DNA of 64,000 nucleotides, taken from NCBI GenBank assembly GCA_001785355.1, contig MFTQ01000004.1, forward strand, positions 3,612 to 67,611, written 5' to 3'. Positions 1 through 61,988 of the stretch are shown piece by piece (positions within the stretch are counted from its first letter, which is position 1; each line of letters opens with the position of its first letter). The stretch comes from Candidatus Nomurabacteria bacterium RIFCSPHIGHO2_01_FULL_41_71 (GTDB taxonomy: Bacteria; Patescibacteriota; Minisyncoccia; Phycocordibacterales; UBA9973). The notes under the pieces are model-generated. The model worked only from the letters and a program-made list of their open reading frames with translations, ran no database searches and was not told the DNA's origin. The position numbers and the translations under genes were made by a program.

Positions 1-887
1 ATGTTCGTCTGGAGGAAGGTGGAGCCATGGATTATACCGTTGTTGTTTCCGCTGGAGCATCAGAGTCAGCTGCTCTTTCTTACGTAGCGCCATATGCAGG
101 AGTATCCATTGCGGAATATTTTATGGATAAGGGAAAAGATGTGTTGATTATCTACGACGACCTGTCGAAACATGCGGTAGCTTACAGAGAAATATCCCTC
201 CTTCTCCGTCGTCCGCCTGGCCGAGAAGCCTTTCCGGGAGATGTTTTTTATCTTCATTCTCGCCTGCTTGAGCGCGCTTGCCGAAGAAACCAAAAATACG
301 GGGGTGGGTCTATCACTGCGCTTCCCATTATTGAAACTCAAGCGGGAGATATTTCGGCCTATATTCCAACCAATGTAATTTCCATTACCGACGGGCAAAT
401 ATTTCTAGAGACCGATCTTTTCTATAAAGGTATTCGTCCGGCGGTAAATGTCGGCTCTTCCGTTTCCCGTGTAGGTTCTGCCGCCCAGATCAAGGCTATG
501 AAGAAAGTGGCAGGCACTTTGAAGCTCGATCTCGCGCAATACCGGGAGCTCGAAGCTTTCTCTCAGTTTGGTTCTGATTTGGATGAAGCAACCAAGCGGA
601 CCCTCGAGCGTGGCAAAAGGGCGGTGGAGGTATTGAAACAACCCCAATATTCTCCGGAAAAGACAGAACATCAAGTGGTATCCCTTTACGCGCTTTCCAA
701 AGGGTTTATGGATGATGTTCCGGTGAATAAGATAAAAGAATTTGAGCGCGGACTTATCGACCATGCGGAACGTCATGCGAAGGCTTTCTTTAAAGATATT
801 GCGGAAACAAAGATGTGGAGTGAAAAAGGCGAAATTGAGTTAAAGAAAGTAATTGAAGATTTCAAAAAAGGTTTTAGTAACACTTAG
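1..887 (+). CDS. atpA: ATP synthase F1 alpha subunit, C-terminal part (5' end outside window)
   Basis: ORF open from the window start. The sequence (…[47 protein letters not shown]…) is a typical F1 alpha C-terminal region. atpG, atpD and atpC follow. The TAG stop (885-887) lies inside the 23-bp palindrome. Confidence 0.9.
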
Positions 888-904
888 TACTCCGAGTACT
901 AAGT
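882..904. repeat. 23-bp perfect palindrome ACTTAGTACTCCGAGTACTAAGT, copy 1, overlapping the atpA stop codon
   Basis: Read directly. The left arm ACTTAGTACTC is the reverse complement of the right arm GAGTACTAAGT around a central C. An identical copy lies at 27346..27368. Confidence 0.85.
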
Positions 905-4430: not shown

Positions 4431-6401
4431 TTATAGCAGATCTTCCGGATCCACTTTGATTTTAAAGTTTCGGGGAAGGGAGCGGAGTTTTTGGGAAAGG
4501 TTCCGGTCAATGTTTCCACCCGTCAGGAGGGAAGGAAGAGACCATCTTTCAGGGTTTATTTTAAGCAACATATTGGCGGAATATTTATCTTTTATTCTTG
4601 GTATAAAACCGGAGAATATTTCCGGCTCATATTCCTTGAATATTTCTTTCAGTCTTTCCCTTGTTTCCAGGACTTCGGATTTTTTGCCCAAGAAAGTCGT
4701 TTTAATGAAGCGTTTGAAGGGCGGATAATGGAGGATTTTTCTATTTTCTATATCTTCTCTGATCAATGGCCATAGATTGCCTTCTTTCAGAGCAAGGAGG
4801 GTTTTATCCTGTATATTTTTAACCTGAATGATCAGTTTTTCTTCTGTTTTGTCCGATATGTCGAGAAGGATTCTAAGTATTTTCTCTCCCATTTTGAAAT
4901 TCGGGATACTCCAGAGCGAATCAAAGGAAGCAATGACTGAAAGCGGGACTTTCTCTCTCAAATAGTAGAGCGCCATCTCTGTGCCCACCAGTATGGCCCC
5001 GGAAGATTTAGAAAATCCTTCAGCTATTTTTTTTGCTCCGTTTTTGTTTCCGGCGGACTCTCGGTCTAATTTAAAAATCTTTGTTTTTCCCAAGTCTTTT
5101 TCGCGCCCCAGACTCTCTCTTAGATATTCAAGCACTGTTTCGATGCCAATTCCAAGCGGTATCAGGTTCCATCCCCCGCAGACATCGCACAGAATATCGG
5201 CATTTTTCTCTGCACCGCATTTATTACAAACGAACATTCTTTTTTTGCCGTCTTTCGAGGTATAAAGCACCAATACCGATTCACATTCGCCACAGGATAC
5301 CGTATTGCCGCAATCCCGGCATACAGTCATGGTAGAGAGACCCTTGCGCAGAGAAAAAATAAAAACATTCTTTTTTTCTCGGAGAGCGGAGAATACTTGG
5401 AGCATACTTTCCTCCTTTAGCACTTTGAACCCCCCCCATTTATTCTTTTCGGATTTTTGGCTCAAAATTTCCATTTTTATTTTGAGATCGGTTCTGAAAG
5501 AAAGAGGATGCAGGGGATTTATATTTTCCGTGTCTTTTCTCGCTATTGTTTCAAAGCGAAGAAGATCACTCGACATTATAAACCTTGCATTCATTTTCGA
5601 GGCAAAGATTTCGGCAAAGATTCGGAAGTCCAAGTGTGTCTGTCCCAGAGGGATGTAGCCATTTCCGTTTTCTTCTTCCAGAATGACAGTACCTAGATCA
5701 TTCCTTGGGATGGCAAGAAAAGGAGTAGTGCCCACTATCAGCACCGGATGCGTGGAAGAAAGTATTTTCTGACAATTTTTCATATTTTTCTTTTTATTTA
5801 TTCCACTGTGCATGGCGAAAGCAAATTCTCCAATGCCTTTGGATAACGCCTCTGAAAAAATTTCTATGCAAGTTTCTGTTCCGCAAATTATAAAGACGGA
5901 TTTTCCTCTGGCAAATGATTCTCGGATCATTGTCTTATACGCGCTTATACGGTCTTCCAGCGGAGCTTGAAAAAGTAATTTTTCAGGTTTGATTTCGATG
6001 GGAACCGTAGCTATGTTCTGTGGCATCTCTTTTTTAATTTTTTTTATAATTTCAGAAATTTTATCGTAGTCTTCCATAAAAATATTCGGAATTAAACAAG
6101 TGATTACTAATCCCTTATCTTCCACGAAATATTCGGCGGCATCTAAAGTAGCAGAAATGAATTCTTTTTGAAAAATCGACGGACCTTTATCCTCGGCAAC
6201 TTTTCTTAAATTGAAATTCATGTTTTTTATATTACCCTTGGCTTCTGAGAGTTCTTCCACCTTTGACACTAAGGCGAGAATTTTTTTATTTTTTATCGGT
6301 ACGGAAACGACATGCCCTTCGGGGATTGAAAGAGCGGTAAAATAAGCGAGATTTCCTACCGGAATGCCCTTTTTAAGCGGAATAACGGATACGACTTTCA
6401 T
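4431..6401 (-). CDS. priA: primosomal protein N' (PriA)-like with degenerate helicase motifs
   Basis: An N-terminal 3'-DNA-binding-like domain. A Cys-rich zinc-binding region, CRDCG…CGEC…CNKCG…CDVCG. ICGTETC replaces Walker A GSGKT, and ILEEEN replaces DEEH. Confidence 0.6.
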   Translation of the reverse strand: MKVVSVIPLKKGIPVGNLAYFTALSIPEGHVVSVPIKNKKILALVSKVEELSEAKGNIKNMNFNLRKVAEDKGPSIFQKEFISATLDAAEYFVEDKGLVITCLIPNIFMEDYDKISEIIKKIKKEMPQNIATVPIEIKPEKLLFQAPLEDRISAYKTMIRESFARGKSVFIICGTETCIEIFSEALSKGIGEFAFAMHSGINKKKNMKNCQKILSSTHPVLIVGTTPFLAIPRNDLGTVILEEENGNGYIPLGQTHLDFRIFAEIFASKMNARFIMSSDLLRFETIARKDTENINPLHPLSFRTDLKIKMEILSQKSEKNKWGGFKVLKEESMLQVFSALREKKNVFIFSLRKGLSTMTVCRDCGNTVSCGECESVLVLYTSKDGKKRMFVCNKCGAEKNADILCDVCGGWNLIPLGIGIETVLEYLRESLGREKDLGKTKIFKLDRESAGNKNGAKKIAEGFSKSSGAILVGTEMALYYLREKVPLSVIASFDSLWSIPNFKMGEKILRILLDISDKTEEKLIIQVKNIQDKTLLALKEGNLWPLIREDIENRKILHYPPFKRFIKTTFLGKKSEVLETRERLKEIFKEYEPEIFSGFIPRIKDKYSANMLLKINPERWSLPSLLTGGNIDRNLSQKLRSLPRNFKIKVDPEDLL

Positions 6402-6445
6402 ATTTTGATTCTAACATAGATAAATTATACCTCCATATTTTTTTC

Positions 6446-6474
6446 TTGATTAAAAGCAGATACGGGGGTATATT
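6446..6474 (+). promoter_or_regulatory. sigma70-like promoter (TTGATT-17-TATATT) abutting the mreB ATG, possibly leaderless
   Basis: The -35 box is at 6446-6451 and the -10 box at 6469-6474. The ATG is at 6481, only 6 nt after the -10, with no Shine-Dalgarno sequence. Confidence 0.35.
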
Positions 6475-6480
6475 GTTCTC

Positions 6481-7494
6481 ATGAGTTTTTTTTCACGCAA
6501 ATTAGGCATAGATTTAGGCACGGCAAATACCTTGGTATTTGTGCCCGGCAAAGGGATAGTTTTAAATGAGCCTTCGGTGGTGGCTGTGTCTGAACAGGAT
6601 AATAAAATTCTGGCAATAGGTTTTGAAGCTAAAGATATGATCGGCAAAACGCCCGAAAACATTATTACATATTGTCCTATGAAAGACGGAGTTATAGCGG
6701 ATTATCGGGTAACGGAAGCGATGCTTCGTTATTTTATAAATAAAGCCATGGGTAAATGGAGCTTATGGAAACCGGATGTGATGGTCTCGGTTCCAGCCGG
6801 TGTTACCTCTACCGAACGGCGAGCCGTGGTAGAAGCGGCTATCCGTGCGGGGGCTAAAAACGCTTATGTGGTGAAAGAGCCGATTCTTGCCGCTATCGGC
6901 GCGGGTATTCCAATTTATGAATCTAGGGGGCATATGGTGGTGGACATCGGAGGAGGTACTACGGATGTGGCGGTGATTTCTCTGGGTGGAATAGTAGCGT
7001 CCACTTCGGTCAAATGCGCCGGAAATAAAATAGATGCGGCTATTGCCGATTATATAAAAAAAACTTTTAACTTGGCCATAGGAGACAGAACAGCCGAAGA
7101 GGTGAAAATAAAGATAGGCGCGGCGGTGCCTCTGGGAGAAGAGCTTTCGGTTACGATCCGGGGAAGAGATTTTATTCAAGGATTACCCAGAAGCGCGAAA
7201 GTAAGCACCAACGAAATAGTGAAAGCAACAGACAGCGAACTCCGGCAAATTATTAAAGCTATCAAGGATGTTCTTCAAGAAACCCCACCCGAGCTTGCTT
7301 CCGATATCATGGAACACGGGATTATCATGACCGGAGGATCGTCTCTTTTGCGTAATTTGCCGGATCTGGTTTATCGGCGGACGGGAGTAAAAGCAATGCT
7401 TGCCGATGACGCGCTTTTCTGTGTGGCAAAAGGCACCGGTCTTGCTCTTGAGCACCTTGATGTGTATAAAAAAACAGTATTAAGCAAAAAATAG
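6481..7494 (+). CDS. mreB: rod shape-determining actin homolog MreB
   Basis: LGIDLGTANTLVFVPGKGIVLNEPSVVAV and the ATPase motifs DIGGGTTD and MTGGSS. Confidence 0.9.
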   Translation: MSFFSRKLGIDLGTANTLVFVPGKGIVLNEPSVVAVSEQDNKILAIGFEAKDMIGKTPENIITYCPMKDGVIADYRVTEAMLRYFINKAMGKWSLWKPDVMVSVPAGVTSTERRAVVEAAIRAGAKNAYVVKEPILAAIGAGIPIYESRGHMVVDIGGGTTDVAVISLGGIVASTSVKCAGNKIDAAIADYIKKTFNLAIGDRTAEEVKIKIGAAVPLGEELSVTIRGRDFIQGLPRSAKVSTNEIVKATDSELRQIIKAIKDVLQETPPELASDIMEHGIIMTGGSSLLRNLPDLVYRRTGVKAMLADDALFCVAKGTGLALEHLDVYKKTVLSKK

Positions 7495-7496: not shown

Positions 7497-8216
7497 ATGT
7501 TTTCAAATCATTTTGATTCGAATAATCTTCATCACGCGTATTTGATAGAAGGAGAAAGAATGAAAGCGTTATCGGAAATAATGCGATTTTTAGAAAGTAT
7601 CGACATTAAAACTTCCGGCAATGCCGACTTTTCTCTCATTTCTCTGGATTCTTTCAGTGTGGAAAATGCCAGAAATTTAAAATCTTTAAGCGTCGAAAAA
7701 AGCTTCTCCTCCAGTTTATCCGCGCAAGCAAATAAAAGAATTTTTATAATTTCAACCAATAATTTTCTTCTGGAAGCTCAAAACACTCTTCTGAAAATGT
7801 TTGAAGAGCCCATAGAAGACGTTATTTTTTTTCTGATAGTGCCGGACAAGAATGCTCTGCTTAAGACCCTTGCCTCCAGATTTTATGTGATTTCCTTGGA
7901 GCGGGCTTTGGGAGAGGAGGCGGAAATGGCAGATAAATTTTTAAATATGAGTTTACAAAAGAGGGTTGATTTTATAAAAGACCTTCTGATTGAAAACGAA
8001 GGGGAAGAAGAGGAGTTGGAAAAATCTGTCAGATTAAAGGCATTAAAATTTTTAAACGCCCTTGAACATATACTCCACAAAAAGTTAGTGTCAAGGACGG
8101 TCCTTGACATAGGTGTTTTTGAACATTTTTTCAAAGTTAGGAAATTTTTGCGTATGCCCGGGTCTTCTACCAAGAGTCTAATGGAATCCGTGGCGTTTTT
8201 AACTCCGAATTTATGA
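7497..8216 (+). CDS. holB: DNA polymerase III delta'-like clamp-loader subunit (no P-loop)
   Basis: HHAYLIEGE, followed by …NTLLKMFEEP…ASRF…, resembles delta prime. No Walker A is present. Confidence 0.45.
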   Translation: MFSNHFDSNNLHHAYLIEGERMKALSEIMRFLESIDIKTSGNADFSLISLDSFSVENARNLKSLSVEKSFSSSLSAQANKRIFIISTNNFLLEAQNTLLKMFEEPIEDVIFFLIVPDKNALLKTLASRFYVISLERALGEEAEMADKFLNMSLQKRVDFIKDLLIENEGEEEELEKSVRLKALKFLNALEHILHKKLVSRTVLDIGVFEHFFKVRKFLRMPGSSTKSLMESVAFLTPNL

Positions 8217-8783: not shown

Positions 8784-9907
8784 ATATTTTAATTTTTTTT
8801 ATAATTTTGTTAATTTTGGTGTTGGTCCATGAGTTTGGGCATTTTTTTGCGGCGAAGAAATTCGGCATACGAGTGGATGAATTTGGATTCGGCTTTCCGC
8901 CTAAATTGTTCGGGATTAAAAAAGGAGAAACAGAATATACTTTTAATTTGTTTCCAATTGGCGGATTTGTAAAAATTTTCGGTGAAAATCCAAATGAAGC
9001 AGAAGACTTGGAGGCCTTGCCTCCACTTGGAGGCAAGGCCTCCAAGTCGGGGAGTTTTTCTTTCAAGCCTAAATGGCAACAAGCTGTGGTTTTATCTGCC
9101 GGAATCTTGGCCAACTTTCTTCTTGCCTTTCTTCTTTTTTCTTATGCTTTTATTTCTGGTTTGCCCGTGGCGGCTGACGAAGGATTTGCCGGATATATAC
9201 CCAAGGATGTAAATACGGTAATTATTTCCGTAATTCCCGGTTTACCGGCCGCAAACGCTGATCTTAGGCCGGGAGACAAGATAATTTCAATGAAAAACAG
9301 CAGAGAAACCCTAACCTTAATCAATCCGGATAAAATTAAAATTTTTATTATTTCAAGTATCGGAGATGAAATAGAAATCGGTTTTGTGCGAAGTTCTAAA
9401 ACAAATAAATTACTTTTTACCAAGGTGATTCCCATTGTTTCCGGGCCAAACGAAGATCCGGTGGTCGGTATTAGTATGGATCAGATAGGCATAGTTAAAT
9501 TACCGATATGGCTTGCTTTGCCTGAGGGTATGAAAATGACGACATCCGCCATCAAAGAGACTGTTGTTGGGCTCTTTAAGCTTGCCAAAGAAAGTCTAAT
9601 GGGAAATGGCAGTTTAGATAATGTAGCCGGTCCGGTGGGGCTGGTCGGCATGGTGGGAGAAGTTTATGGTTTCGGTTTTTCTTATCTTATTTCTTTTACG
9701 GCTTTGATTTCTATTAATTTAGGCATTATAAACTTGGTTCCTTTTCCCGCGCTTGACGGAGGTAGGCTATTTTTTCTTCTGATTGAGAAGATAAAAGGTT
9801 CGCGTATTAATCGTAAATTTTTCAATATTGCAAACATGACGGGCTTCGCTATATTAATCTTATTCATGTTGGCGGTGACTTATAAGGACATAACGAAATT
9901 GTTTTAA
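8780..9907 (+). CDS. rseP: RseP-family site-2 zinc metalloprotease
   Basis: HEFGHFFAAKKFG (HExxH) and a C-terminal LDGG motif, with multiple TM segments. It carries the 40-bp palindromic element in-frame. Confidence 0.8.
   Translation: MNILIFFIILLILVLVHEFGHFFAAKKFGIRVDEFGFGFPPKLFGIKKGETEYTFNLFPIGGFVKIFGENPNEAEDLEALPPLGGKASKSGSFSFKPKWQQAVVLSAGILANFLLAFLLFSYAFISGLPVAADEGFAGYIPKDVNTVIISVIPGLPAANADLRPGDKIISMKNSRETLTLINPDKIKIFIISSIGDEIEIGFVRSSKTNKLLFTKVIPIVSGPNEDPVVGISMDQIGIVKLPIWLALPEGMKMTTSAIKETVVGLFKLAKESLMGNGSLDNVAGPVGLVGMVGEVYGFGFSYLISFTALISINLGIINLVPFPALDGGRLFFLLIEKIKGSRINRKFFNIANMTGFAILILFMLAVTYKDITKLF
9007..9046. repeat. 40-bp nested palindromic element, copy 1, in-frame within rseP
   Basis: CTTGGAGGCCTTGCCTCC-ACTT-GGAGGCAAGGCCTCCAAG has 18-bp arms that are reverse complements, and each arm is itself a GGAGGC/GCCTCC hairpin. 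It encodes LEALPPLGGKASK. Confidence 0.85.
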
Positions 9908-10628: not shown

Positions 10629-13031
10629 ATGGCGCGTAACCATTTTTTGCAAAAAAAAATTAGAATCGCTATTTTAACTGGAGGGCCTTCCCTGGAACGT
10701 GGAATTTCACTCAATTCCGCCCGCAGTGTGCTTGATCATCTGGGAAGTCTGGAGGTCGATGTCGTTCCAATCTATTTTGATGAAAAGAAAAAACCGTATA
10801 AAATATCCACTGCTCAGCTTTATTCCAACACCCCGAGCGATTTTGATTTTAAGCTTCGAAAAACGGGTAGATTCCTTTCCGAATCCGCCCTTATTCGCGT
10901 TTTAAAGAGTGTTGATATTGTTTTTCCCGCCATTCACGGCTCTTTTGGCGAAGATGGCGAAATTCAAAGTTTTCTTGAAAAACACAAAATACCTTTTATT
11001 GGAACCTCTTCCAAATCATGCAAAATAGCTTTTGATAAATTTCGAGCCAATGAATATATCCGCTCGCTTGGTTTTTATGCTCCGAATTCCATAGTGCTCA
11101 AAATTACCGATACCAAGAAAAATATTTTTAAAAAAATAACCGAATTTTGGAATAAAGAAAAAATAACTCGCGCCATAATAAAACCTTCTTCCGGAGGTTC
11201 GAGTATTGGTGTGTTTTCGGTAGAAAATATTTCCGATGCAGTGACAAGTGTTGAGACGCTTTTTCGGAAACGTATGGATACTCGGGTGGTGATGGAACCT
11301 TTTATGAAGGGCAAGGAATTCACGGTGATTATATTGGAAAACAGATTTAACCAAGCGGTGGCCATGATACCTTCGGAGATCGAGGTTGAATATGATGAAA
11401 ATCAATTTTTCGATTTTCGCAAAAAATATCTTCCTACTCGCCAAGTGACCTACCATTGTCCGCCGAGATTCGGGAATGAGATTATCGAAAAGATTCAGAT
11501 AGAAGCCGAACAGCTTTTTTCTGTTTTTGGTATGCGGGATTTTGCGCGTTTTGACGGGTTTTTCTTGCCGGACGGCAATGTATGGTTTTCGGATTTTAAT
11601 CCAATTTCTGGCATGGAACAAAACAGTTTTCTCTTTCAGCAATCTTCCAGAGTTGGTTTTTCTCACCGGGATTTATTTCGTTTCATCATAAATAACGCTT
11701 TTTTACGCAGGAAAATCAAAAAAACAATTAAAAATATTTCGCTGTCGGAAAAAAGAAAACCGGTAGCGGTGCTTTTTGGAGGAGAAACCGCGGAAAAACA
11801 AACATCTCTTATGAGCGGTACGAATGTCTGGCTTAAATTGCGGGGCTCCAAGCTTTATAAACCTCTTCCTTATCTTTTGGGAAAGGACAGAGAGGTCTGG
11901 GAATTGCCCTACTCGTATATTCTCAATCATACAGTGGAAGAAATAACAGAAAATGCCAAAAAGGCCCAAAAAGATTTTGCTAGGCTTCGTTTTCTTGTAG
12001 AAAAAGTAAAGCTTGGTCTCGCGCTAAAAAGGGGAGAAGTCACGGAAGAATTTTTTATACCCAGAAAGCTTTCGATCGGAGATCTTATCAAACAGCATAA
12101 ATTTATTTTTCTCGGCTTGCATGGAGGGATAGGAGAAGATGGAACTATCCAAAAAATACTTGAAGAAAAAAAAGTGAAATTCAACGGATCCGGAAGCGTT
12201 GCCTCAAAACTCTGCATGGACAAGTGGGCGACAAGCGAGACCATAGCGGAAGCTCATATTCCGGGCGTAAGCGTAGCCAAACATTTTTTACTCCGTCAGG
12301 GCGATATCGCCGAAATTATTAAAACAAAACAACAAAATAAATACTGGAATATGCTTTTGCAAAAGCTTGGCACAAGAACATTGATTGTCAAGCCTCGAGG
12401 AGATGGATGTTCGGCCGGAGTGGTAAGGCTCCAGAATTCAAAAGATTTATTTGCTTATCTTTCTTTAATTAGAAAAAAAATTCTGATGGTCCCGCCTGGG
12501 ACTTTTACCAGACAAAAAACTCCCGTAAATATGCCCGAGAACCCCTCCGATATAATTTTTGAATCTTTTATTGAAACAGATAAACTGAAAACAGTCGGGG
12601 GCGAAATTGTCTATGTCAGACGAAGCGGATATTTGGAAATAACGATAGGGGTGCTGGAAAAAGACGGCAGGCTAGAGGTTCTCTCCCCCTCTATTACTAT
12701 TGCTGAATCGGTAATTCTTGGCGTGGAGGAGAAGTTTCAAGGAGGCACGGGGGTAAATATTACTCCTCCACCGAAAGAAATAATTTCTCAAAAAAATTTA
12801 AATAAAGTCAAAAAACAAATTGAACAGGTGCTAAAAACGCTCAAAGTTCGAGGATATGCCAGAATCGATGTCTTTGTCCAAATAGCCACAGGGAATATAA
12901 TAGTGATAGAGGTCAATACCTTACCCGGACTTACTCCCTCGACTGTGTTTTACCACCAAGCTCTTGCGGAGAATTTTCCGATTCAACCCATTCAATTATT
13001 GGAAAAAATTATAAAAAATGCCGGCTATTGA
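10629..13031 (+). CDS. ddl: tandem fusion of two D-alanine--D-alanine ligase-like ATP-grasp modules
   Basis: The N-terminal half has IAILTGGPSLERGISLNSA…ARFDGFF…NPISGME. The C-terminal half has VAVLFGGETAEKQTSL…ARIDVFV…EVNTLPGLTPSTVF. ATG 10629 is chosen because an AAGG lies 4 nt upstream. Confidence 0.75.
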   Translation: MARNHFLQKKIRIAILTGGPSLERGISLNSARSVLDHLGSLEVDVVPIYFDEKKKPYKISTAQLYSNTPSDFDFKLRKTGRFLSESALIRVLKSVDIVFPAIHGSFGEDGEIQSFLEKHKIPFIGTSSKSCKIAFDKFRANEYIRSLGFYAPNSIVLKITDTKKNIFKKITEFWNKEKITRAIIKPSSGGSSIGVFSVENISDAVTSVETLFRKRMDTRVVMEPFMKGKEFTVIILENRFNQAVAMIPSEIEVEYDENQFFDFRKKYLPTRQVTYHCPPRFGNEIIEKIQIEAEQLFSVFGMRDFARFDGFFLPDGNVWFSDFNPISGMEQNSFLFQQSSRVGFSHRDLFRFIINNAFLRRKIKKTIKNISLSEKRKPVAVLFGGETAEKQTSLMSGTNVWLKLRGSKLYKPLPYLLGKDREVWELPYSYILNHTVEEITENAKKAQKDFARLRFLVEKVKLGLALKRGEVTEEFFIPRKLSIGDLIKQHKFIFLGLHGGIGEDGTIQKILEEKKVKFNGSGSVASKLCMDKWATSETIAEAHIPGVSVAKHFLLRQGDIAEIIKTKQQNKYWNMLLQKLGTRTLIVKPRGDGCSAGVVRLQNSKDLFAYLSLIRKKILMVPPGTFTRQKTPVNMPENPSDIIFESFIETDKLKTVGGEIVYVRRSGYLEITIGVLEKDGRLEVLSPSITIAESVILGVEEKFQGGTGVNITPPPKEIISQKNLNKVKKQIEQVLKTLKVRGYARIDVFVQIATGNIIVIEVNTLPGLTPSTVFYHQALAENFPIQPIQLLEKIIKNAGY

Positions 13032-14318: not shown

Positions 14319-17300
14319 ATGAAAATGGAGTCGCCAGTTTTTACAGAAAGGTCTAAAAGGTCAAAAGAACCTTTGGAACCACACGATATTCCCTCGGCTA
14401 TGAGCCAGATTAAAGAGGGACAAGAACAAACTCCTGACCAAGAAAGAATCTTGATTGATATACAAACCTATCTTGATGCAGCTCATGATATTTTTGAAGA
14501 TATAGAAACTAAAAGACCAATATTACCAGACTTACCCGAAAGCCCTAGCGCAGAAGTGCCGCTTGATTTCTCTGAACTTTCTCGGCAGTTGAAATCTAAA
14601 TTAGCTCAATTAGACAAAATGACTTCTAGAAGTTTTGGAGCACAACATAGGCTAAGCGAAGCTGGTCATAGAAATAGACGAAGAATAGAAAAAGTAGAAG
14701 ACCCTGTGGATGAATATTCCAAATGGTCGAGTACCTTGGAAAGTCAGTATTCAAATGTAAATTCCCAAATTAAACCTCTCGAAGCCGCATTAGTTCTACA
14801 TCGAGAATGCCAAGAATTAGGTAAAGAATATAAAACTATAATAAGCAGAAGATTTTCGGTGCCTGAGAAAGATTTAAGAAATCAGATAGATAAATTACTA
14901 GAAGAGTGCCTTTCACAAATAAGAGCTTTAGGAAGAAATCCTTTAAAATACACCGAGAAGCTAGCATTAAAAAGAAAGTGTGCTGAATTTATTGATATCA
15001 CACACAAAGTATATTTGATTGAAAATCTTTTTCCCGAAATAAGACATTCAGGATATAACTATGCTCTTAGTTGGAAAGATGGTTTAAAATATGACATATC
15101 GATACCCGTTGGCCATCTGTACGAACAAGTAGGTGTGAATTTACGTTTAAAAATCAATCAGTTAAAAACTTTAATCGCAGAAAGCAAAAAAAAAGAAACA
15201 GACGCAATTTCTCCGAAAGATTTAGCAATTCTTAAAGGAGATTTTTTTACAAAATATGTCCTTCCTCACATTTCCAATCTTCCTCCAGATATTCAAGCCG
15301 AAATATTATCCGAATATAATGAAAAAGGAACTGTTTACTTAAATCGATATGGTGTAGAAGACAGAAATGCCGCGGAAAGAATATCTTATGCTAGAATGAA
15401 TGAAAAAATAGAAGACAGTTTTAAATCGCTTGCTGATTTGCTTCGTAATGGAGATCCTGTCGGTGAAGCTTATAAATTGATTAAGCAAGAATTACCGAAG
15501 TTAATGGAAGAGCGTCCTTTGAAATATGATTTTGATGATATTTCTCGAACTCGACTTGAAAGTCCTATAATGAGAGCGGTCAAAGAATTACCTCGGCTGA
15601 AAGTTTTTATGGAAAGCCATGTGTTCCTTAATGCTACACCCGAAGAGCGAGAGAGGTTTCTAGAAAATGCCAGAAGTTTGATAAGTGAATATCTAAGTCA
15701 AGGAAAAATTATTGAGCCTACATCTCTAGCGGATAAATTATTATCACATCCAAACCCCGCAATCGCTCTAGAAATCATAGATTCTAGCTCCAATGAAAGC
15801 CGTAGTAGAAGCAACGAAGCAATACTTTTTATTTTTCAGCTTTTTCGGGAAAGTTCGGTAGAATCTGAAAGAAGTATTTTATCGAATATGCTTCATCGGT
15901 TCACCAATGACATAACTACCTATCAAGATCAGATTGTTGAAATCTTGCCCAGCCAAAGTAAAAGTATATATATTTTAGGCAGAGAGCTACTAATGAAACT
16001 GGCCACTCAAAATATGCCTATACCGCCTTTGTTATGGGAGCGAATGGAATCATATTTGGAAGATACGGTTGAACATATGGAAAAGGAAAAGGATTATAAG
16101 ATTCTAGTTCCTATTCTTAACGAAATCGCCAACGGAAGTGAAGCAGGTAATAGATATTTTGCCAACGAAGCGCTCATGTTGGCTATATATAGACATTTAG
16201 GTAAGGCTAATTTTATGCTTCCTGACGGATTGTTATTCATTAAAGATTCTAAAAACATCAATCTTATTATCGAGGGTTATAGAAAATATTTTGGTATGCA
16301 AAGCATCGATTTACCAGATAGCGAAAAATTCCAACTTGCTTTTCAAAAAGGATTGACCATTACTCAGCTATTTTCTCATTATGACAATGATGTAGAGAGT
16401 TTCTTTGACGATAAATTATTTCAAAAACTTTATGAATATCCGGAACTTGAGAAGCTTCTGACTGATCTTATTAGTCGCATTCAAACATTAAGCGATAGAA
16501 CTATTATTTCTCGAATTTTTTATTCTGTTCTACCATTCCTTCTAGAGACAGCATTCGCCGTCGATTCCAAAGAAGGTGAAACCGAATTTACGGCTCGTCT
16601 GAATAGAATATCAGAGTATTATGAAAAAGTTCTAGAAAAAACTAAGGAAGAAAAAAGTGCTCTTCAATTTTACTTGGGCGATAGTGCTTGGGAAGTAATA
16701 AAATTTCATCCACATCCAACCGATCTTCTTCTAGAATTTCCCGAACAAGCTCCGCTTTTATTTAAGGAAGAGCAAAGAGGACTTCAGAATCTCATATCTT
16801 CGAATTTTAATGTGCTTATAAAGGATAAGACGGATATGATTTTTCTAAATCAACTTGTTGGTAGATTTGGAGGAAATGCTCCCCAGCTAATAACAGACTA
16901 TCTTCAATGTTTAAAAGAAGGCGCGCTCACATTGGACGAAAAAGGATTAGTCGAAGAATTTCTTGGAAAATTTAGAGTTCTTTCGCCTGCCATTATAAAT
17001 GGTTATCGAGAAGCAAAAGCATCGCATACAGAGGAAGTTTTCATTGCTGGTTTAGAATCGATTGCCGAGCATGCTACTGGGCAAGGTAATCCAACTGAAA
17101 CACAACGACAGTCTCCATTTTATAAAGATGTTTTAAGGGCCATTTATCAAAACAATTCCGGACAATGGACTACTTTCGAGAAGAATGAGAGCTGTAAAGA
17201 CAGGTCAGCGGATTTACAAGGCTTCAAAATAAAAGAACGTTATGAAATCGATCTTCTGGCGGCTGGAGATATTAAAATGAAGCCAGGAGCAGAATTAGAT

Positions 17301-18521
17301 CGGAAAGGAATGGCGCAACTTGAAGAAGGAGTTACTTATATAGCAGACGAATTTAAGGCAGCTAATTTTGATCCGGAAATAGTTAAGAAAAAGGTCAATG
17401 ACCGTATCGAAGAAGTCTTCAATTTATTTACTGGAAGCGAAGTATTAAAAGATCTTGATGTAACGTCACTGACGCTTGAGCAAAAATTATTTATTATTTT
17501 ATCAGAAACAACTTACGGAACACCTCCAATTGAACCCAGAGAAGTTAAAAAACTTCTTTTTGAATACGAATTTGCTAACTTCGAAGATATTCGGGAATAC
17601 ATTCAAGGTACAAACGATAGAGTAGCAACTGCTCAAAATCGAGATTATGCTCTCTTGTGCGAATTCCATAGTCTTTTTGCCGACAGAATCAAAGAAATCA
17701 ACCGCCGACTGATTACGGCCGGATGGGAAAATACCGAGATTGCTAAAAAAATGCCGGCATATTTTGCGCAATTATCAAAAAAACGTGGAGACGCCGCAAG
17801 GGTAGAAAAAATAAATAAATTACAAATTGGAAAACTCGGCTTGAATGATACATTTTTGAAACAAATGAAAAGAGTGTTGAATAAAAAAGCAGGCACCAAT
17901 TATTCTGACGAACAAGTACGGCAAATTATTGCTAGATATGAAAGAATGACATCTGGATTGACAGAAACTAGTACATCTACCAAAGGAAGAACTCGCGAAT
18001 TTGCCGGTCAATTACGCGGGCAAAAAGAGAAAACCAGAAAAGCATTAGAGTTACTAGACGGCAAAAAACTAAATCCGGAAGAATTCCGTTTGGGCCATTT
18101 AGATTTCAATCAATATCTTGATGCCGAAAATGCAATTGGAAAAGGAACGTACAACGATGAACAATTTGCTTCATACACACTTCAACAATTTATCGGTATT
18201 TTTACCGAAGAACGAGAATTTGTTGAGGGAGAACTTGATAAATTTATGACTTCTTCCGGGAAAAATCGAGCGCGGCTTAGTGGTTACATTTCCAAATCTC
18301 CTGAGACTGCTCACGCCCGTATGGTTGGTGGAGTATGCGTTTCCGGAGATAATCCAAATCGAGGAGAAAAAAACATGTGGGATATGGAAAATTATTTTCA
18401 GTTAGTTCTTCAAGATCCAGAAACTAAACGCTGCCAGGGTATAGTATTGCTCCATCATTTCGAAGAGAACGGCCAGAAAATTTTAACTGCAGCTTTTAAT
18501 CCCTATGGCAAATGGATTTGA
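14319..18521 (+). CDS. 1400-aa orphan hypothetical protein, probably cytoplasmic
   Basis: One uninterrupted ORF. By eye it has no signal peptide or TM segment and no Walker A or HExxH motif. The sequence is rich in helix-favouring and acidic residues. Confidence 0.7.
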   Translation: MKMESPVFTERSKRSKEPLEPHDIPSAMSQIKEGQEQTPDQERILIDIQTYLDAAHDIFEDIETKRPILPDLPESPSAEVPLDFSELSRQLKSKLAQLDKMTSRSFGAQHRLSEAGHRNRRRIEKVEDPVDEYSKWSSTLESQYSNVNSQIKPLEAALVLHRECQELGKEYKTIISRRFSVPEKDLRNQIDKLLEECLSQIRALGRNPLKYTEKLALKRKCAEFIDITHKVYLIENLFPEIRHSGYNYALSWKDGLKYDISIPVGHLYEQVGVNLRLKINQLKTLIAESKKKETDAISPKDLAILKGDFFTKYVLPHISNLPPDIQAEILSEYNEKGTVYLNRYGVEDRNAAERISYARMNEKIEDSFKSLADLLRNGDPVGEAYKLIKQELPKLMEERPLKYDFDDISRTRLESPIMRAVKELPRLKVFMESHVFLNATPEERERFLENARSLISEYLSQGKIIEPTSLADKLLSHPNPAIALEIIDSSSNESRSRSNEAILFIFQLFRESSVESERSILSNMLHRFTNDITTYQDQIVEILPSQSKSIYILGRELLMKLATQNMPIPPLLWERMESYLEDTVEHMEKEKDYKILVPILNEIANGSEAGNRYFANEALMLAIYRHLGKANFMLPDGLLFIKDSKNINLIIEGYRKYFGMQSIDLPDSEKFQLAFQKGLTITQLFSHYDNDVESFFDDKLFQKLYEYPELEKLLTDLISRIQTLSDRTIISRIFYSVLPFLLETAFAVDSKEGETEFTARLNRISEYYEKVLEKTKEEKSALQFYLGDSAWEVIKFHPHPTDLLLEFPEQAPLLFKEEQRGLQNLISSNFNVLIKDKTDMIFLNQLVGRFGGNAPQLITDYLQCLKEGALTLDEKGLVEEFLGKFRVLSPAIINGYREAKASHTEEVFIAGLESIAEHATGQGNPTETQRQSPFYKDVLRAIYQNNSGQWTTFEKNESCKDRSADLQGFKIKERYEIDLLAAGDIKMKPGAELDRKGMAQLEEGVTYIADEFKAANFDPEIVKKKVNDRIEEVFNLFTGSEVLKDLDVTSLTLEQKLFIILSETTYGTPPIEPREVKKLLFEYEFANFEDIREYIQGTNDRVATAQNRDYALLCEFHSLFADRIKEINRRLITAGWENTEIAKKMPAYFAQLSKKRGDAARVEKINKLQIGKLGLNDTFLKQMKRVLNKKAGTNYSDEQVRQIIARYERMTSGLTETSTSTKGRTREFAGQLRGQKEKTRKALELLDGKKLNPEEFRLGHLDFNQYLDAENAIGKGTYNDEQFASYTLQQFIGIFTEEREFVEGELDKFMTSSGKNRARLSGYISKSPETAHARMVGGVCVSGDNPNRGEKNMWDMENYFQLVLQDPETKRCQGIVLLHHFEENGQKILTAAFNPYGKWI

Positions 18522-24813: not shown

Positions 24814-27051
24814 ATGAAAAATAATTACCAAGATCATAAGGAAACAGAAGAAATAATATATACCTGCCCAATGCACCCGGAAGTAATCAAGAACATTCCT
24901 GGCTCATGCCCAAAGTGTGGCATGAGACTTGTGAAGACTGAAGCAAAAACACGCAATAGTGATCATGCTGGTCATGTAATGGGTGATCCATCAAAAATGG
25001 GTTTCTGGGAGAAATTTAAAATGAGCATGTCGATGACAATGGGTATGGATCATACAGGACTTGCCGGTCGGGAAATGGCGCGTCTCATGGAGATAGATAT
25101 TCGGAATAAATTCTTCTTCACGCTTATTCTTACAATTCCTATTATTTTGTATTCACCTCTAGGCACGGAGTTTCTGAAAATTAATCTTCCTTTCCCAATA
25201 CCACTTCCCTGGCTCCTCTTTATTTTAACAACACCGGTATTTTTCTATTCTGGTTGGATTTTTCTATATTCAACATACTTTGCTCTCAAAAGTAAGGTGC
25301 TCAATATGGCGGTGCTCATTGCCGTCGGTATTACCGCGGCTTATGGCTTCAGCATTTTATTAACCCTGATCGGTAGTGCCGATTCATATTACGAAGCGGC
25401 CGCTATGCTTATTACTTTTGTCTTGTTTGGTCACTGGATGGAGATGAAATCTCGTCGCGGAACAACCGACGCTCTCCAAGCACTTTTCAATCTCGTCCCG
25501 CCTCAAGCCAGAATTTTTAAAGATGGGAAGGAAGTAATGGTTTCCACTTCAGATATACAACTTGGCGACATTATTATATTGAAGCCGGGAGACAAGGTTC
25601 CTGTCGATGGAGAAATTACCGAAGGGGAAACCGCCATAGATGAATCTTTGGTTACTGGGGAATCAATTCCTACTTCAAAAAAGATTGGGGATCAAGTAAT
25701 TGGCGGATCAATCAACACTGCCGGATCGGTGAAATTTAAGGCGACAAAAGTCGGCAAAGACACCGCTCTTGCACGAATTGTGGCGATGGTTGAAGAAGCG
25801 CAGAATTCAAAAGCCCCTGGACAAAGAATTGCTGATCAGTTTGCAAAATATTTAGTTATTGGGGCAGTCGGATCTGGTCTTTTAGTTTTTGGTGTTTGGT
25901 ATTTTATTATGGGGGTACCGATTATTCTAGCACTCTCCTTTGCGATCGCTACGGTTGTCATTGCCTGTCCCGATGCGTTAGGACTTGCTACACCGACTGC
26001 TGTGGCTGTCGGCACAGGCCTCGGAGCAAAACATAATATTCTTATAAAAGATGCACCAACTCTTGAACAAGTTTCAAAAATCCAAGCCATTGTGCTCGAT
26101 AAAACAGGAACTCTAACTGAAGGAAAGCCGAAAATAATAGATGTTGCTACCGTAGATGGTTTTGATGCAAGCGAAGCACTTCGTCTAGTCGGTGCGGCTG
26201 AAGCTAAGTCATCCCACCCTTTGGCTGGTGCGGTACTCAATGAACTTAAAAAACGTGGCCTTACATTGCCAGAGTCGGTTGATAAATTTGAAAATCTTTC
26301 TGGCTTGGGGGTGAAAGCTATCGTAGATGGAAAACAAGTTCTGATAGGTACAGTGAAGCTCATGAAAGAAAACAACATTGTTCTCGGGGCATTAAAGAAA
26401 CAAATAAATGAGTTTCTGGAAAAAGGGGAAACGATCATGATTCTTGCGGTTGACGGCGCTGTCAAAGCTGTAATCGGTGCGGCTGATCCAATAAAACCTA
26501 CCGCTGTAAAAACGGTTGAACGATTGAAGGCTTTGGGTATTGAAATTGCCATGATCACGGGCGACAATAAAATGACCGCAGAAAAAGTAGCCAGTCAAAT
26601 TGGCATCGAAAGAGTGTTTGCTGAAGTAATGCCTGCAGACAAAGCAAGCTATGTAAAAAAGTTACAACAGGAAGGAAAATTCACGGCCATGGTCGGAGAT
26701 GGAGTTAACGACGCACCCGCGCTCGCTCAATCTGATGTGGGCATTGCCATTGGTGCAGGCACGGACGTAGCTATAGAGACCGCAAAAGTCGTGTTGATGA
26801 AATCTGACCCGTTAGATATACTGCGAGCAATAACCTTGAGCAAGGCAACAGTTCGCAAAATGAAACAAAATCTTTTCTGGGCTTCAATTTATAATGTTCT
26901 AGCGATACCAGTTGCCGGTGGAATTCTGTATCCTAGCTTCGGTATTATGCTTCGTCCGGAATTTGCGGCACTCCTTATGAGTATTTCTTCAATAATCGTT
27001 GCAACAAATGCAGTATTATTAAAAAGAGTCGAGAAAGATTTAGTAGTATAA
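24814..27051 (+). CDS. copA: copper-translocating P1B-type ATPase
   Basis: N-terminal TCPMHPEV…CPKCGM metal-binding domain and a Met-rich MSMSMTMGM stretch. The other motifs are TGES, DKTGTLT and GDGVNDAPAL. The TM6 motif reads CPD where CPC is usual. Confidence 0.9.
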   Translation: MKNNYQDHKETEEIIYTCPMHPEVIKNIPGSCPKCGMRLVKTEAKTRNSDHAGHVMGDPSKMGFWEKFKMSMSMTMGMDHTGLAGREMARLMEIDIRNKFFFTLILTIPIILYSPLGTEFLKINLPFPIPLPWLLFILTTPVFFYSGWIFLYSTYFALKSKVLNMAVLIAVGITAAYGFSILLTLIGSADSYYEAAAMLITFVLFGHWMEMKSRRGTTDALQALFNLVPPQARIFKDGKEVMVSTSDIQLGDIIILKPGDKVPVDGEITEGETAIDESLVTGESIPTSKKIGDQVIGGSINTAGSVKFKATKVGKDTALARIVAMVEEAQNSKAPGQRIADQFAKYLVIGAVGSGLLVFGVWYFIMGVPIILALSFAIATVVIACPDALGLATPTAVAVGTGLGAKHNILIKDAPTLEQVSKIQAIVLDKTGTLTEGKPKIIDVATVDGFDASEALRLVGAAEAKSSHPLAGAVLNELKKRGLTLPESVDKFENLSGLGVKAIVDGKQVLIGTVKLMKENNIVLGALKKQINEFLEKGETIMILAVDGAVKAVIGAADPIKPTAVKTVERLKALGIEIAMITGDNKMTAEKVASQIGIERVFAEVMPADKASYVKKLQQEGKFTAMVGDGVNDAPALAQSDVGIAIGAGTDVAIETAKVVLMKSDPLDILRAITLSKATVRKMKQNLFWASIYNVLAIPVAGGILYPSFGIMLRPEFAALLMSISSIIVATNAVLLKRVEKDLVV

Positions 27052-27888
27052 AGTTTTTTTAAAATAAATTTTTTTAGACGCATCAAACCATTTGATATCT
27101 TTATCGCGTTTAAACCAGGTCATCTGACGCTTGGCATATTTGATAGTTTCCGTTATTACTTTTTCAGGAGTTGGATGAAAATATTCAAAGCCAAGTTCTC
27201 GTAGTCTATTTTCCGAAACGCCCGATTTCTTTAACTTTTCGATTTCTTTTAAAAGTCCCGTTTTAAACATTTTTTTTACACGTTTTTCCACCTTCTCTTT
27301 TAATTTTTCTGGAGGCAGATATAATCCAATTTTGATAAATTTATAACTTAGTACTCCGAGTACTAAGTGGGGGACTTTACCTAAGGCTTTGGCTATTTCA
27401 ATTGCCCTGATCAATCTGACTTTATTTTTTGGATCTATATTTTTTGCTCTATTTTTGTCTAACTTTATCAATATACGAAATAATACGGTCGCACTTTTTT
27501 GTGCCAATTTGCGGCGTAATTTTTTATCAAGAGGAACTGAGGGAAATTTTAATCCTTTTGTTACCGCATCGATATAGAATCCGGTACCACCGCAGATGAT
27601 CGGAATTTTACCTCGGCTGACAATCTCCGCCATAGCGGAGATTGTCAGCTTTTGATATTTTTCAACTGAAAATTTATTTTTCGGACTAATCACATTTAAC
27701 AAATGATGGGGTGTCCCCATCATTTGTTTTTTGGTAATTTTACCGGTACCAATATCGAGCCCCTTATAGACTTGTCTCGAATCGGCCGAAATTATTTCGC
27801 CACCGATTTTTCCGGCAATTTTCACCGCTAAATCACTTTTACCAGTGGCGGTTTGGCCTAAAATGACGATTACTTTCGGTTTTTTCAT
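27040..27888 (-). CDS. miaA: tRNA dimethylallyltransferase
   Basis: P-loop ILGQTATGKS and ADSRQVYKGLDIGT. It carries the 23-bp palindrome in-frame. Confidence 0.85.
   Translation of the reverse strand: MKKPKVIVILGQTATGKSDLAVKIAGKIGGEIISADSRQVYKGLDIGTGKITKKQMMGTPHHLLNVISPKNKFSVEKYQKLTISAMAEIVSRGKIPIICGGTGFYIDAVTKGLKFPSVPLDKKLRRKLAQKSATVLFRILIKLDKNRAKNIDPKNKVRLIRAIEIAKALGKVPHLVLGVLSYKFIKIGLYLPPEKLKEKVEKRVKKMFKTGLLKEIEKLKKSGVSENRLRELGFEYFHPTPEKVITETIKYAKRQMTWFKRDKDIKWFDASKKIYFKKTLYY
27346..27368. repeat. 23-bp perfect palindrome, copy 2, in-frame within miaA (encodes HLVLGVLS)
   Basis: Identical to 882..904. Translated on the minus strand in the miaA frame: CCC CAC TTA GTA CTC GGA GTA CTA AGT. 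Confidence 0.85.
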
Positions 27889-31787: not shown

Positions 31788-31829
31788 ACCCCGATTTTAG
31801 CATTTATTGCTCCGAGCTTCAATTTCCCA

Positions 31830-31858
31830 TAGACAAGAAGTAAAAAGTAATGTATAAT
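31830..31858 (+). promoter_or_regulatory. sigma70-like promoter TAGACA-17-TATAAT with a downstream GAGGAGGAGG Shine-Dalgarno
   Basis: Read directly. The ATG is at 31903. Confidence 0.45.
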
Positions 31859-31902
31859 ATATTTGGACAATTTCGTCCCCCAAAGAAGAGGAGGAGGCAG
31901 CC

Positions 31903-32403
31903 ATGAATTTTGAGTATGGCACGACTCGCTTCGTCTTCTGTGTGGGGGGCGTAGCGATGAAAGTCGCCCGGGTAAAAGTAATTTACTGGGCGAAAAGGGT
32001 AATCGAGAAAATATTCGTGGCGCAACATGCCACGAATATTTTAAGAGGGGGAAATCCTCAACCGTTTGCTCGGTTGAGGCATTTGTTCGCCGGCGTAACG
32101 GCGAACCTGGAGGAAGGGCGGATGTATGCCCGCTATCCAGAGCTTCCTCTGGCCCCCACCCTTTTTTCGTTCTTCGGACTTGTGAATATCCAAGTCCGAG
32201 GAACACCGATCGGAAAGGACGAGCTCGTGCTTTGTCCTTTCCGGGACCTTGCTGACATCGAGTCGGCAGGGATTGACCTCAACAAGGCCGAGAATTTTGG
32301 CCGAATTGATGGTCGAATTGTGCTCCTCGATTGCGGGTTCGAGGGGCTCAACAAAATTTTGGCGAGATACGCGGAATCTCGCCAGATTGTTTACGATTTT
32401 TAA
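31903..32403 (+). CDS. hypothetical protein encoded in a GC-rich (~50%) patch
   Basis: 166 aa with a strong promoter and Shine-Dalgarno. No family was recognised. Confidence 0.5.
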   Translation: MNFEYGTTRFVFCVGGVAMKVARVKVIYWAKRVIEKIFVAQHATNILRGGNPQPFARLRHLFAGVTANLEEGRMYARYPELPLAPTLFSFFGLVNIQVRGTPIGKDELVLCPFRDLADIESAGIDLNKAENFGRIDGRIVLLDCGFEGLNKILARYAESRQIVYDF

Positions 32404-32446
32404 ATAGCCAGCAACACCCGAAAGGAGTATGTTCGCTGGCTATTTT
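32402..32446 (+). terminator. hairpin AAATAGCCAGC…GCTGGCTATTT plus T-run after the 31903 gene
   Basis: An 11-bp stem, a 22-nt loop and TTTTAATT. Confidence 0.4.
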
Positions 32447-32501
32447 AATTGTCTACGGAAATCAACATATGTGTTTTTCGGTAGACATTACAAAACAAAC
32501 A

Positions 32502-32541
32502 CATGTCGTGAATTTGCGCATATGCGCAAATTCACGACATG
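32502..32541. terminator. 40-bp perfect palindrome CATGTCGTGAATTTGCGCAT|ATGCGCAAATTCACGACATG between convergent genes
   Basis: Read directly. It lies 8 nt past the topA stop and is followed on the minus strand by GTTTGTTTTG. Confidence 0.4.
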
Positions 32542-32548
32542 GTGAAAT

Positions 32549-54304: not shown

Positions 54305-54305
54305 T

Positions 54306-55718: not shown

Positions 55719-56250
55719 AAAAAAATTAGTACTGATGGTTCATGAGGGAGGTAGTCACACTAATTTAAAGACAATACGAAGGGCGGTTGATGCCGGTAAA
55801 ATTAATGCGGAAATTTCCGCGGTAGTTTCTGATAAAGAGAACGCGATACCGGTATTGGAGAAAATGTCCCCGGACTATATATGTCTCGCTGGTTGGAAGA
55901 AAATTATTCCTAAAAAAATTATAAAAGAATATAAGAACAAAATCTTAAATATACATCCGGGTTTAATTCCTGATACAGTCAACGAAAAAGTGAAAAATCC
56001 TGACGACACGGAAGCTTTGTGGAATAAAGAAATGTATGGTAATAAAGCCGTTCAGAATTTTTTAGATCGGAAAGCAACTTTTGCCGGCTCTTCTATTCAT
56101 TTTTTAACCCTTGACTTTGATTTTGGGCCGGTTTTAGGGAGAACTTTTGAAAAAATTCAAATTAATGATACTGTTGAATCTCTATATGCACGGCTCAAAA
56201 AAAAAGAAAATGAGTTATATGTGGAGATTTTAGAAAAATTAACTCAATGA
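55699..56250 (+). CDS. purN: phosphoribosylglycinamide formyltransferase
   Basis: NIHPGLIP motif, within the pur operon. Confidence 0.7.
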   Translation: MMSQTSKKKLVLMVHEGGSHTNLKTIRRAVDAGKINAEISAVVSDKENAIPVLEKMSPDYICLAGWKKIIPKKIIKEYKNKILNIHPGLIPDTVNEKVKNPDDTEALWNKEMYGNKAVQNFLDRKATFAGSSIHFLTLDFDFGPVLGRTFEKIQINDTVESLYARLKKKENELYVEILEKLTQ

Positions 56251-57599: not shown

Positions 57600-57608
57600 A
57601 ATAAACTT

Positions 57609-58130: not shown

Positions 58131-58132
58131 AA

Positions 58133-61984: not shown

Positions 61985-61988
61985 TATC

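Follow-up and report, generated by a model that had tools for sequence, protein, structure and literature searches.

A dispersed 23-nt hairpin-forming repeat in gene spacers and tolerant protein loops of Nomurabacteria

The palindrome at the atpA-atpG junction and in miaA

A 64,000-nt stretch of contig MFTQ01000004.1 from Candidatus Nomurabacteria bacterium RIFCSPHIGHO2_01_FULL_41_71 (hereafter the window) contains two exact copies of a perfect 23-nt palindrome (ACTTAGTACTCCGAGTACTAAGT, 11+1+11), which is the element analysed here, at positions 882-904 and 27346-27368. Copy 1 overlaps the end of atpA (27-887, + strand) and the spacer that separates it from atpG, whose start codon ATG lies at 922, and copy 2 is located in frame within miaA (27040-27888, - strand). 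Both the twofold occurrence and the residence in open reading frames (ORFs), as reported in a preliminary description of this DNA, were reproduced. The two copies are identical over 26 nt (a+23+gg), and each 23-mer contains two AGTACT hexamers (ScaI-like). No third copy with up to three mismatches is present in the window, and 100 dinucleotide-preserving shuffles of the window yielded no match at the same threshold. For copy 1 (881-905), an RNA hairpin with an energy of -12.6 kcal/mol (z = -6) is predicted. The features of the two sites are as follows.

881-905, strand not assigned: copy 1 of the element, CACTTAGTACTCCGAGTACTAAGTG, a 12+1+12 palindrome with the 23-nt core at 882-904, overlapping the atpA end and the atpA-atpG spacer
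885-887, + strand: TAG stop codon of atpA, provided by the element; the preceding codon 882-884 (ACT, Thr) is likewise element-derived
882-908, + strand: putative 27-nt in-frame insertion ACTTAGTACTCCGAGTACTAAGTGGTT, from the comparison with the related loci L015, L016 and L010
909-911, + strand: putative ancestral atpA stop codon TAA, in frame 27 nt past the Asn codon, as judged from the sequence
27346-27368, - strand: copy 2 of the element, inside miaA; together with C27369 it encodes H174-S181 (HLVLGVLS)

An assembly artefact is very unlikely as the source of the 23-mer copies, because the same sequence is present in independent assemblies and the exact MiaA protein of the window, loop included, is recorded on 24 contigs. 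Where independent JGI, NCBI and ENA assemblies overlap the window, identity is 100% or 99.98% at the atp end, including copy 1, and 100% at the other end (51989-64000); the miaA copy lies outside both overlaps. An adapter artefact was rejected on the same grounds, as related palindromes also occur in orthologues from unrelated sequencing projects.

The atpA reading frame ends with GGT TTT AGT AAC ACT TAG (...FSNT*), its stop codon being located inside the palindrome as previously noted, and is followed by a 34-nt spacer. Deletion of 882-908 in silico yields TTT AGT AAC TAA GGCGAATTTT ATG, i.e., an 'FSN*' end and a 10-nt spacer. The corresponding junction of L015 reads TTT AGT AAT TAA, 12 nt, ATG, that of L016 has a 24-nt spacer and that of L010 reads TAA C ATG, all three without the palindrome. 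In 120 close homologues, AtpA C-termini consist of a conserved FKxxF motif and 0-4 variable residues, and several end in '...FSN'. These comparisons suggest an in-frame insertion of 27 nt immediately before the old TAA, with the element adding one Thr codon and a working stop codon. Since the ...FSN end is present in the palindrome-free relative L015, only one residue and the stop are contributed by the element. The earlier proposal that the palindrome partly defines the AtpA C-terminus, which was to be weakened by relatives with the same C-terminus but no palindrome, thus holds for the last codon (Thr) and the stop, but not for ...FSN, which L015 encodes without it. A hairpin over the atpA stop codon could have an effect on the translation of atpA and atpG.

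The same junction of L010 contains an insertion of a different kind (11497-11600), where a remnant of the canonical atpG start (MVGTKEIKR...) directly follows the atpA stop codon, a GC-rich hairpin insert comes next, and the called atpG begins anew at another ATG (MSNSKAIKN...).

In miaA, the element is read as CAC TTA GTA CTC GGA GTA CTA AGT and fills the 8-residue variable loop between the invariant residues P173 and Y182, in agreement with the in-frame translation into a variable MiaA loop proposed earlier. This loop is usually KITEETPP-like, corresponds to ...EEETPSP of Bacillus MiaA (PDB 2QGN) and comprises 8 amino acids in 101 of the 120 closest homologues and 9 in two (17 were not captured by the search pattern). 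The supposed difference in loop length was not borne out, as nothing is inserted and copy 2 represents a same-length overwrite of eight codons. Loops of the form 'HL....PS' are encoded by 20 of 105 homologues with an 8-residue loop, including the following alternative palindromes.

L007, MiaA loop HLEARPPS: ACTTGGAGGCAAGGCCTCCAAGT, a perfect palindrome identical to family A of the window (see below)
L008 and L017, MiaA loop HLAVKPPS: ACTTGGCGGTTAAACCGCCAAGT, perfect 11+1+11 palindrome
L004, MiaA loop HLVLRLPS: ACTTGGTACTCCGACTACCAAGT, variant of the 23-mer family with 10/11 pairs; compared with the window, it has one mismatch and one compensatory change of an A:T to a G:C pair
L009, MiaA loop HLVLRPPS: ACTTGGTACTCCGACCACCAAGT, variant of the 23-mer family with 9/11 pairs

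All alternative palindromes in the MiaA loop share one codon register (C/AC TT. ... AGT/TAT). Outside the loop, identity within the palindrome-bearing class of MiaA proteins is 0.761 versus 0.749 between classes, and the class is scattered over a star-like neighbour-joining tree, which leans against a single clade. The two miaA genes with HLAVKPPS loops are 76% identical at the nucleotide level overall and 55% at third codon positions, and the only 24-nt windows identical between them, five in total, all overlap the palindrome, which points to a DNA-level constraint or recent exchange.

Furthermore, miaA of the window contains two more perfect palindromes that are unique. Three orthologues have only quasi-palindromes at these sites, and the variable arm appears to have been rewritten in the window to match the conserved arm.

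27616-27649, - strand: perfect 15+4+15 palindrome, encoding the conserved LTISAMAEIVS
27698-27728, - strand: perfect 14+3+14 palindrome, encoding KQMMGTPHHLL, including the conserved PHHLL motif

Copies in other genomes and related palindrome families

Large sequence collections, comprising ~600 Gb of genomes (185,579 species representatives) and the JGI metagenome collection, were scanned for the exact 23-mer with the centre base left free. Among the species representatives, ACTTAGTACTCCGAGTACTAAGT occurs in one contig (L001), which belongs to a Nomurabacteria metagenome-assembled genome with 48% GC; this copy is the only one in the whole genome, is located between convergent genes and is part of a palindrome extended to 35 nt. 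Two JGI metagenome contigs contain further copies, one directly 3' of an aldolase gene (L002) and two between the convergent genes smc and rnr (L003), the latter two being 148 nt apart and having opposite centre bases. All four foreign copies are intergenic. The six copies in four contigs reside in six non-homologous contexts, which have only the flanking C...G (C-23mer-G) in common, and five of the six are found at 3' ends of genes. The presence of the 23-mer at four further non-homologous intergenic sites in three foreign contigs therefore identifies it as a dispersed element and not a coincidence.

In L003 (300-425), the final 15 nt of rnr including its stop codon, ACGAATTGG[C/T]TTAAT, are duplicated ~75 nt downstream, adjoining the second 23-mer copy, and this duplication may be the footprint of the event that placed the element. 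A phage origin was considered and rejected, as neither the 23-mer nor the family A palindrome was found in 2.9 million viral contigs.

In addition to the 23-mer, the window contains a sister family (family A, ACTTGGAGGCAAGGCCTCCAAGT), which is represented at three coding sites.

9005-9048, + strand: inverted dimer of family A, ACTTGGAGGCCTTGCCTCCA + CTTGGAGGCAAGGCCTCCAAGT, read in frame within rseP (DLEALPPLGGKASKS); at this place the protein exceeds the L007 orthologue by 8 amino acids
56653-56694, + strand: family A inverted dimer, in frame in purD (YLEARPPLGGLASKS); the protein is 8 amino acids longer here than 116 of 120 homologues
63349-63391, + strand: family A monomer (63349-63371) with a decayed second unit behind it, read in frame within the PBP2 gene (NLEALPPSGDLVSKL)

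Both families are 23 nt long, start with ACTT, end with AAGT and, in the first unit, use the codon register NAC-TTR. The general design of this superfamily is ACTT, a 15-nt stem-loop and AAGT, usually flanked by C...G, and the ACTT/AAGT feet are conserved across at least four stem families. Five sites in the window match ACTT-N15-AAGT and form 5 or more of the 7 inner pairs, compared with 0.015 in shuffles. The architecture of the dimers is fixed as well (ACTT-core-ACTT-core'-AAGT, 19+23 = 42 nt = 14 codons) and common to two stem families, and a further inverted dimer was identified in L010 (18342-18385). The 23-mer had originally been regarded as a second, unrelated family of palindromes, which is contradicted by the common geometry, feet and reading frame. 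As ACTTGGAGGCAAGGCCTCCAAGT occupies the same eight MiaA codons in L007, the two families are related and interchangeable at one site.

The window contains 25 perfect hairpins (stem of 9 bp or more, loop of up to 7 nt), whereas shuffled sequences contain 1-8. The excess is confined largely to perfect repeats, with 16 observed and 0.83 expected perfect 10-bp arms (~19-fold) versus 22 and 16.3 for arms with one mismatch. Of 18 palindrome sites assigned to genes, 15 are within coding sequence, and the palindrome-bearing ORFs (miaA, rseP, purD, PBP2, holB and dus) stay open, with the elements residing in variable loops. Element-linked gains in length comprise, in addition to the 8 residues each in RseP and PurD, ~13 further residues in PurD and extensions of holB and atpG in L010. 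Orthologous holB palindromes of the window (TGTCAAGGACGGTCCTTGACA) and of L010 (CGTCAAAGACCGTCTTTGACG, 18451-18477) differ by two compensatory pairs and the centre base, without any uncompensated change. Palindrome load varies strongly among relatives, L008 and L010 being rich and L015 and L016 being poor and devoid of an ACTT...AAGT member.

Three multi-copy families with further copies downstream of the window are represented by TGTCAAAG...CTTTGACA in dus and purD, TGTCAAGG... in holB, and TTGCCAAAGC-AAG-GCTTTGGCAA in purL. A second superfamily of 21-nt elements (TGTCAA[AG]G...C[CT]TTGACA) occurs in frame within several genes, where the units form inverted or direct pairs, at the following sites.

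38616-38664: dus
57333-57384: purD
8089-8109: holB
14960-14982 and 18376-18406 of L018

The third family, TTGCCAAAGC-AAG/CTT-GCTTTGGCAA, occurs as two copies in opposite orientation, in purL (53206-53230), where an additional direct repeat (GTTGCCAAA) precedes it, and in L018 (13706-13728). A central GC-AAG-GC heptamer is common to several otherwise unrelated palindrome families. The second purD site (57333-57384) is a hot spot of lineage-specific low-complexity inserts in many Paceibacteria (homologues P0242-P0347), and these inserts, e.g., PLLAEEGAGGG... and SPLEEYPLGGGG...STPSRKRATPQEG, look like translated palindromes. Furthermore, a 760-bp GC-rich and palindrome-dense stretch (31788-32548), including a perfect 40-nt palindrome (32502-32541), separates relA/spoT from topA, which are only 64 bp apart in the relative L009. 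This stretch had no Rfam hit, and a 166-aa ORF within it (31.8-32.5 kb) had no Pfam hit. Membership of the palindromes in a known RNA family was likewise rejected, as Rfam returned only three tRNAs in the 64 kb.

The palindrome-poor L015 encodes exonuclease VII (xseA/xseB, 5558-7093) just upstream of its atp operon. Single-stranded DNA exonucleases suppress quasi-palindrome template-switch mutations. Another identical palindrome of 18 nt, TATCTCATATATGAGATA, was identified in four relatives (L004 256-273, L007 5847-5864, L008 8452-8469 and L009 8408-8425) upstream of a gene encoding a HTH_3-EPSP-synthase (MurA-like) fusion, and is probably the operator for the HTH domain of this protein. The window lacks this palindrome and has a tRNA-Leu gene in front of murA.

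Origin and maintenance of the repeats

The 23-mer is a dispersed, exact, hairpin-forming repeat with conserved feet, which resides in spacers and tolerant loops and maintains the perfection of its arms. It appears to be a DNA-level entity, selfish or neutral, and not a protein feature, and a cellular function is not required by the data. It is one member of a superfamily of very short and perfect hairpin repeats that Nomurabacteria genomes carry between genes as well as in frame in poorly constrained surface loops of housekeeping proteins. On balance, we consider it somewhat more likely than not that it is a small hairpin repeat that resembles repetitive extragenic palindromic (REP) sequences and Rickettsia palindromic elements (RPEs), is spread by short-tract copying and is kept perfect by hairpin-templated correction.

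Short-tract copying would place one exact sequence at unrelated loci and in different genomes, either by hairpin transposition, as for REP/REPIN sequences with RAYT, or by a short ectopic conversion or an exchange of cassettes that uses the ACTT/AAGT feet. Hairpin-templated correction, i.e., intrastrand template switching, would keep the arms identical and accounts for the all-or-none excess of perfect palindromes and for compensatory double substitutions between orthologues. An additional copying step is needed where unrelated loci or different genomes have identical stems. Between atpA and atpG, 27 nt would have entered in frame before the old TAA, so that the TAG of the element now ends AtpA one residue later. 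In miaA, the element replaced eight variable-loop codons base for base, and other lineages carry other members of the superfamily at this site.

Several observations weigh against this explanation. Hairpin correction alone fails to explain why exact stems stay identical across diverged genomes. The same-length replacement of exactly eight codons in miaA is awkward for a simple insertion model, and the graded series of MiaA loop sequences is compatible with gradual in-place evolution under some drive. The exact family is present in low copy number (two copies in the 81.6-kb source contig, one in L001, three foreign contigs overall), unlike classic REP populations. No empty-site polymorphism was found in the assemblies overlapping the window ends (L011-L014, L018 and L019; 99.98-100% identical), the miaA site lying outside these overlaps. 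Furthermore, nine unassigned ORFs of the window scanned against Pfam include no transposase, HUH enzyme or nuclease, and neither these ORFs nor the gene tables of the flanking loci contain a RAYT or IS200-like Y1 transposase. The only mobile-type genes in these tables encode a serine recombinase and PemK toxins; one such set precedes the atp operon, and another PemK gene lies beyond the downstream end of the window.

The large serine recombinase gene (1344-2573 of L011) is part of a locus (L011 1103-2623) on the same contig, ~5.3-6.8 kb upstream of the window start. It is bracketed by the inverted sequences CGCTTCCGC[CCTTT/AAAGG]GCGGAAGCG and followed by a PemK toxin gene and unknown ORFs, and the locus has the appearance of a small island, mobile or invertible, beside the atp operon.

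In a more far-reaching version, which we put forward as a speculation with rather low odds of being correct, Nomurabacteria carry a previously undescribed type of minimal mobile DNA consisting of 23-nt 'hairpin cassettes' with ACTT and AAGT at their ends. Such cassettes would be exchanged between existing hairpin sites by a structure-specific enzyme or by the replication machinery, so that different cassettes could replace one another base for base even in essential ORFs, as in the MiaA loop, and spread between genomes might occur by natural transformation.

The palindromes could instead be functional recognition signals under selection or molecular drive, which accumulate by point mutation and recombination wherever the protein tolerates them, e.g., sites for a structure-specific RNA- or DNA-binding protein, hairpins for RNase processing or mRNA stability, or a DNA-uptake-type signal in competence-dependent bacteria. 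We regard this as unlikely, although it would accommodate the exact 23-mers conserved across diverged genomes above the level of neighbouring synonymous sites, the same-length replacement and graded loop series in miaA, and the position of five of six copies at gene 3' ends. Coding copies also prefer the NAC TTR frame, and uptake sequences of Haemophilus and Neisseria have a similar frame preference; in addition, dprA is encoded in the window and called at the corresponding place in relatives. However, several stem sequences coexist in one genome (the AGTACTC, GGAGGC, TGTCAAAG and TTGCCAAAGC families), which a single sequence-specific reader cannot explain, and the binding site for a dimeric protein suggested earlier fails for the same reason, leaving several stem sequences of one geometry unaccounted for. 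If only shape and feet were read, the stems should drift, which they do not. Furthermore, the density per family (~1 per 16-40 kb) is far too low for an uptake signal, and the sites, which include the middle of essential operons and ORFs, follow no common regulatory logic. A purely in-place origin from chance quasi-palindromes by template-switch mutation, with the identical copies reflecting coincidence or a single gene conversion, would agree with the two unique miaA palindromes that arose in place over conserved codons, with the all-or-none excess of perfect over imperfect repeats and with published models of quasi-palindrome correction (PMC5941160, PMC6649704). Yet the same 23-mer lies in six unrelated contexts on four contigs, the family A 23-mer occurs in three genes of the window (purD, rseP and the PBP2 gene) as well as in the miaA gene of a second genome, and the chance expectation is ~0. 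A purely local origin is refuted by 23-mers common to unrelated loci and, as a complete account, is strongly disfavoured and highly improbable; it survives only as the maintenance step of the copying-and-correction explanation.

The two AGTACT hexamers had raised the possibility of a ScaI-like core and a restriction-modification system, and the element might more generally represent the target or footprint of a restriction or homing endonuclease, or a recombinase site, for which the large serine recombinase gene ~5.3 kb upstream of the window start with its own flanking inverted palindromes could be cited. We consider this very improbable. AGTACT is not avoided (11 observed versus 7.7 expected in 81.6 kb, ratio 1.43), the sister families lack it, and no endonuclease or restriction-modification gene is among the nine Pfam-scanned ORFs. 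Serine recombinase sites have a 2-bp central crossover and tyrosine recombinase sites have spacers of 6-8 bp, and the odd-length palindrome with its 1- or 3-nt centre fits neither geometry. The least probable candidate, with hardly any weight, is an intrinsic terminator or attenuator hairpin, even though the predicted hairpin is stable and most copies are located just past stop codons. Copy 1 is flanked by no T-tract and is situated within the atp operon, between atpA and atpG, a scan of 500-1300 detected no terminator-like site, and copy 2 is inside an ORF; the preliminary description had already concluded from the hairpin geometry that the element is no terminator, which the missing U-tract corroborates.

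Comparison with known repeats and implications

REP/REPIN sequences, which are mobilised by RAYT (Y1 HUH) transposases (PMC3116915, PMC3337134), resemble the Nomurabacteria elements in several respects. Both are hairpin palindromes (20-35 nt for REP, 23-25 nt and perfect here) that constitute lineage-specific families, frequently lie just 3' of genes and form inverted doublets, represented here by the family A dimers, L010 18342-18385 and the L003 pair 148 nt apart. The likeness of the foot is partial, as the GTAG tetranucleotide of REP sequences is replaced by ACTT, which is analogous but not the same. In contrast to the imperfect REP hairpins, the elements described here are perfect; copy 2 and most sister copies reside in frame in ORFs and hence are not extragenic; each exact family is of low copy number compared with tens to hundreds of REP copies per genome; several families coexist in one genome, with same-length replacement at one site; and the nine scanned window ORFs and the flanking-locus tables include no RAYT gene.

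Selfish palindromic DNA inserted in frame in protein-coding genes was reportedly described for Rickettsia by Ogata and colleagues in 2000. RPEs are ~100-150 bp long and decay over time. Like RPEs, the elements described here are palindromic repeats of reduced genomes that surface regions of housekeeping proteins tolerate in frame and that are found in non-coding DNA, too. They are considerably shorter, however (21-23 nt, or 42 nt as dimers), stay perfect, and are able to replace codons instead of adding them.

Perfect inverted repeats in coding sequence with both arms translated are known from mitochondrial genes of Nematomorpha (hairworms), for which arm-to-arm conversion was proposed (PMC6649704), and from Proteobacteria, where conservation by template switching was proposed (PMC5941160). 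Common features are the 'binary' excess of perfect over imperfect repeats and gain or loss between relatives, and compensatory double changes between orthologues are present here (holB, miaA of L004). Those palindromes are unique, local and up to 284 bp long, whereas the Nomurabacteria elements are short, identical across loci and genomes, and have conserved ends. DNA uptake sequences (DUS/USS) differ by their density of ~1 per kb of one motif, compared with two copies in 81.6 kb and several unrelated families here.

The element thus differs in defined ways from REP/REPIN sequences, RPEs and coding palindromes, and the two copies of the 23-mer reveal only a small part of a larger phenomenon. 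The searchable literature yielded no description of such elements in Patescibacteria or the candidate phyla radiation (CPR). CPR genomes are thought to be streamlined and repeat-poor. If confirmed genome-wide, our findings would broaden the known range of selfish or structural DNA to include the CPR and would show that 23-nt elements can colonise essential genes and rewrite surface loops of proteins such as MiaA, PurD, RseP and PBP2. In practical terms, protein alignments of the CPR acquire spurious 'lineage-specific inserts' from such palindromes, which can also supply or shift stop codons, as at atpA. The MiaA loop, with alternative perfect palindromes in one codon register in many lineages, represents a natural experiment that could separate hairpin-templated conversion, ectopic copying and selection.

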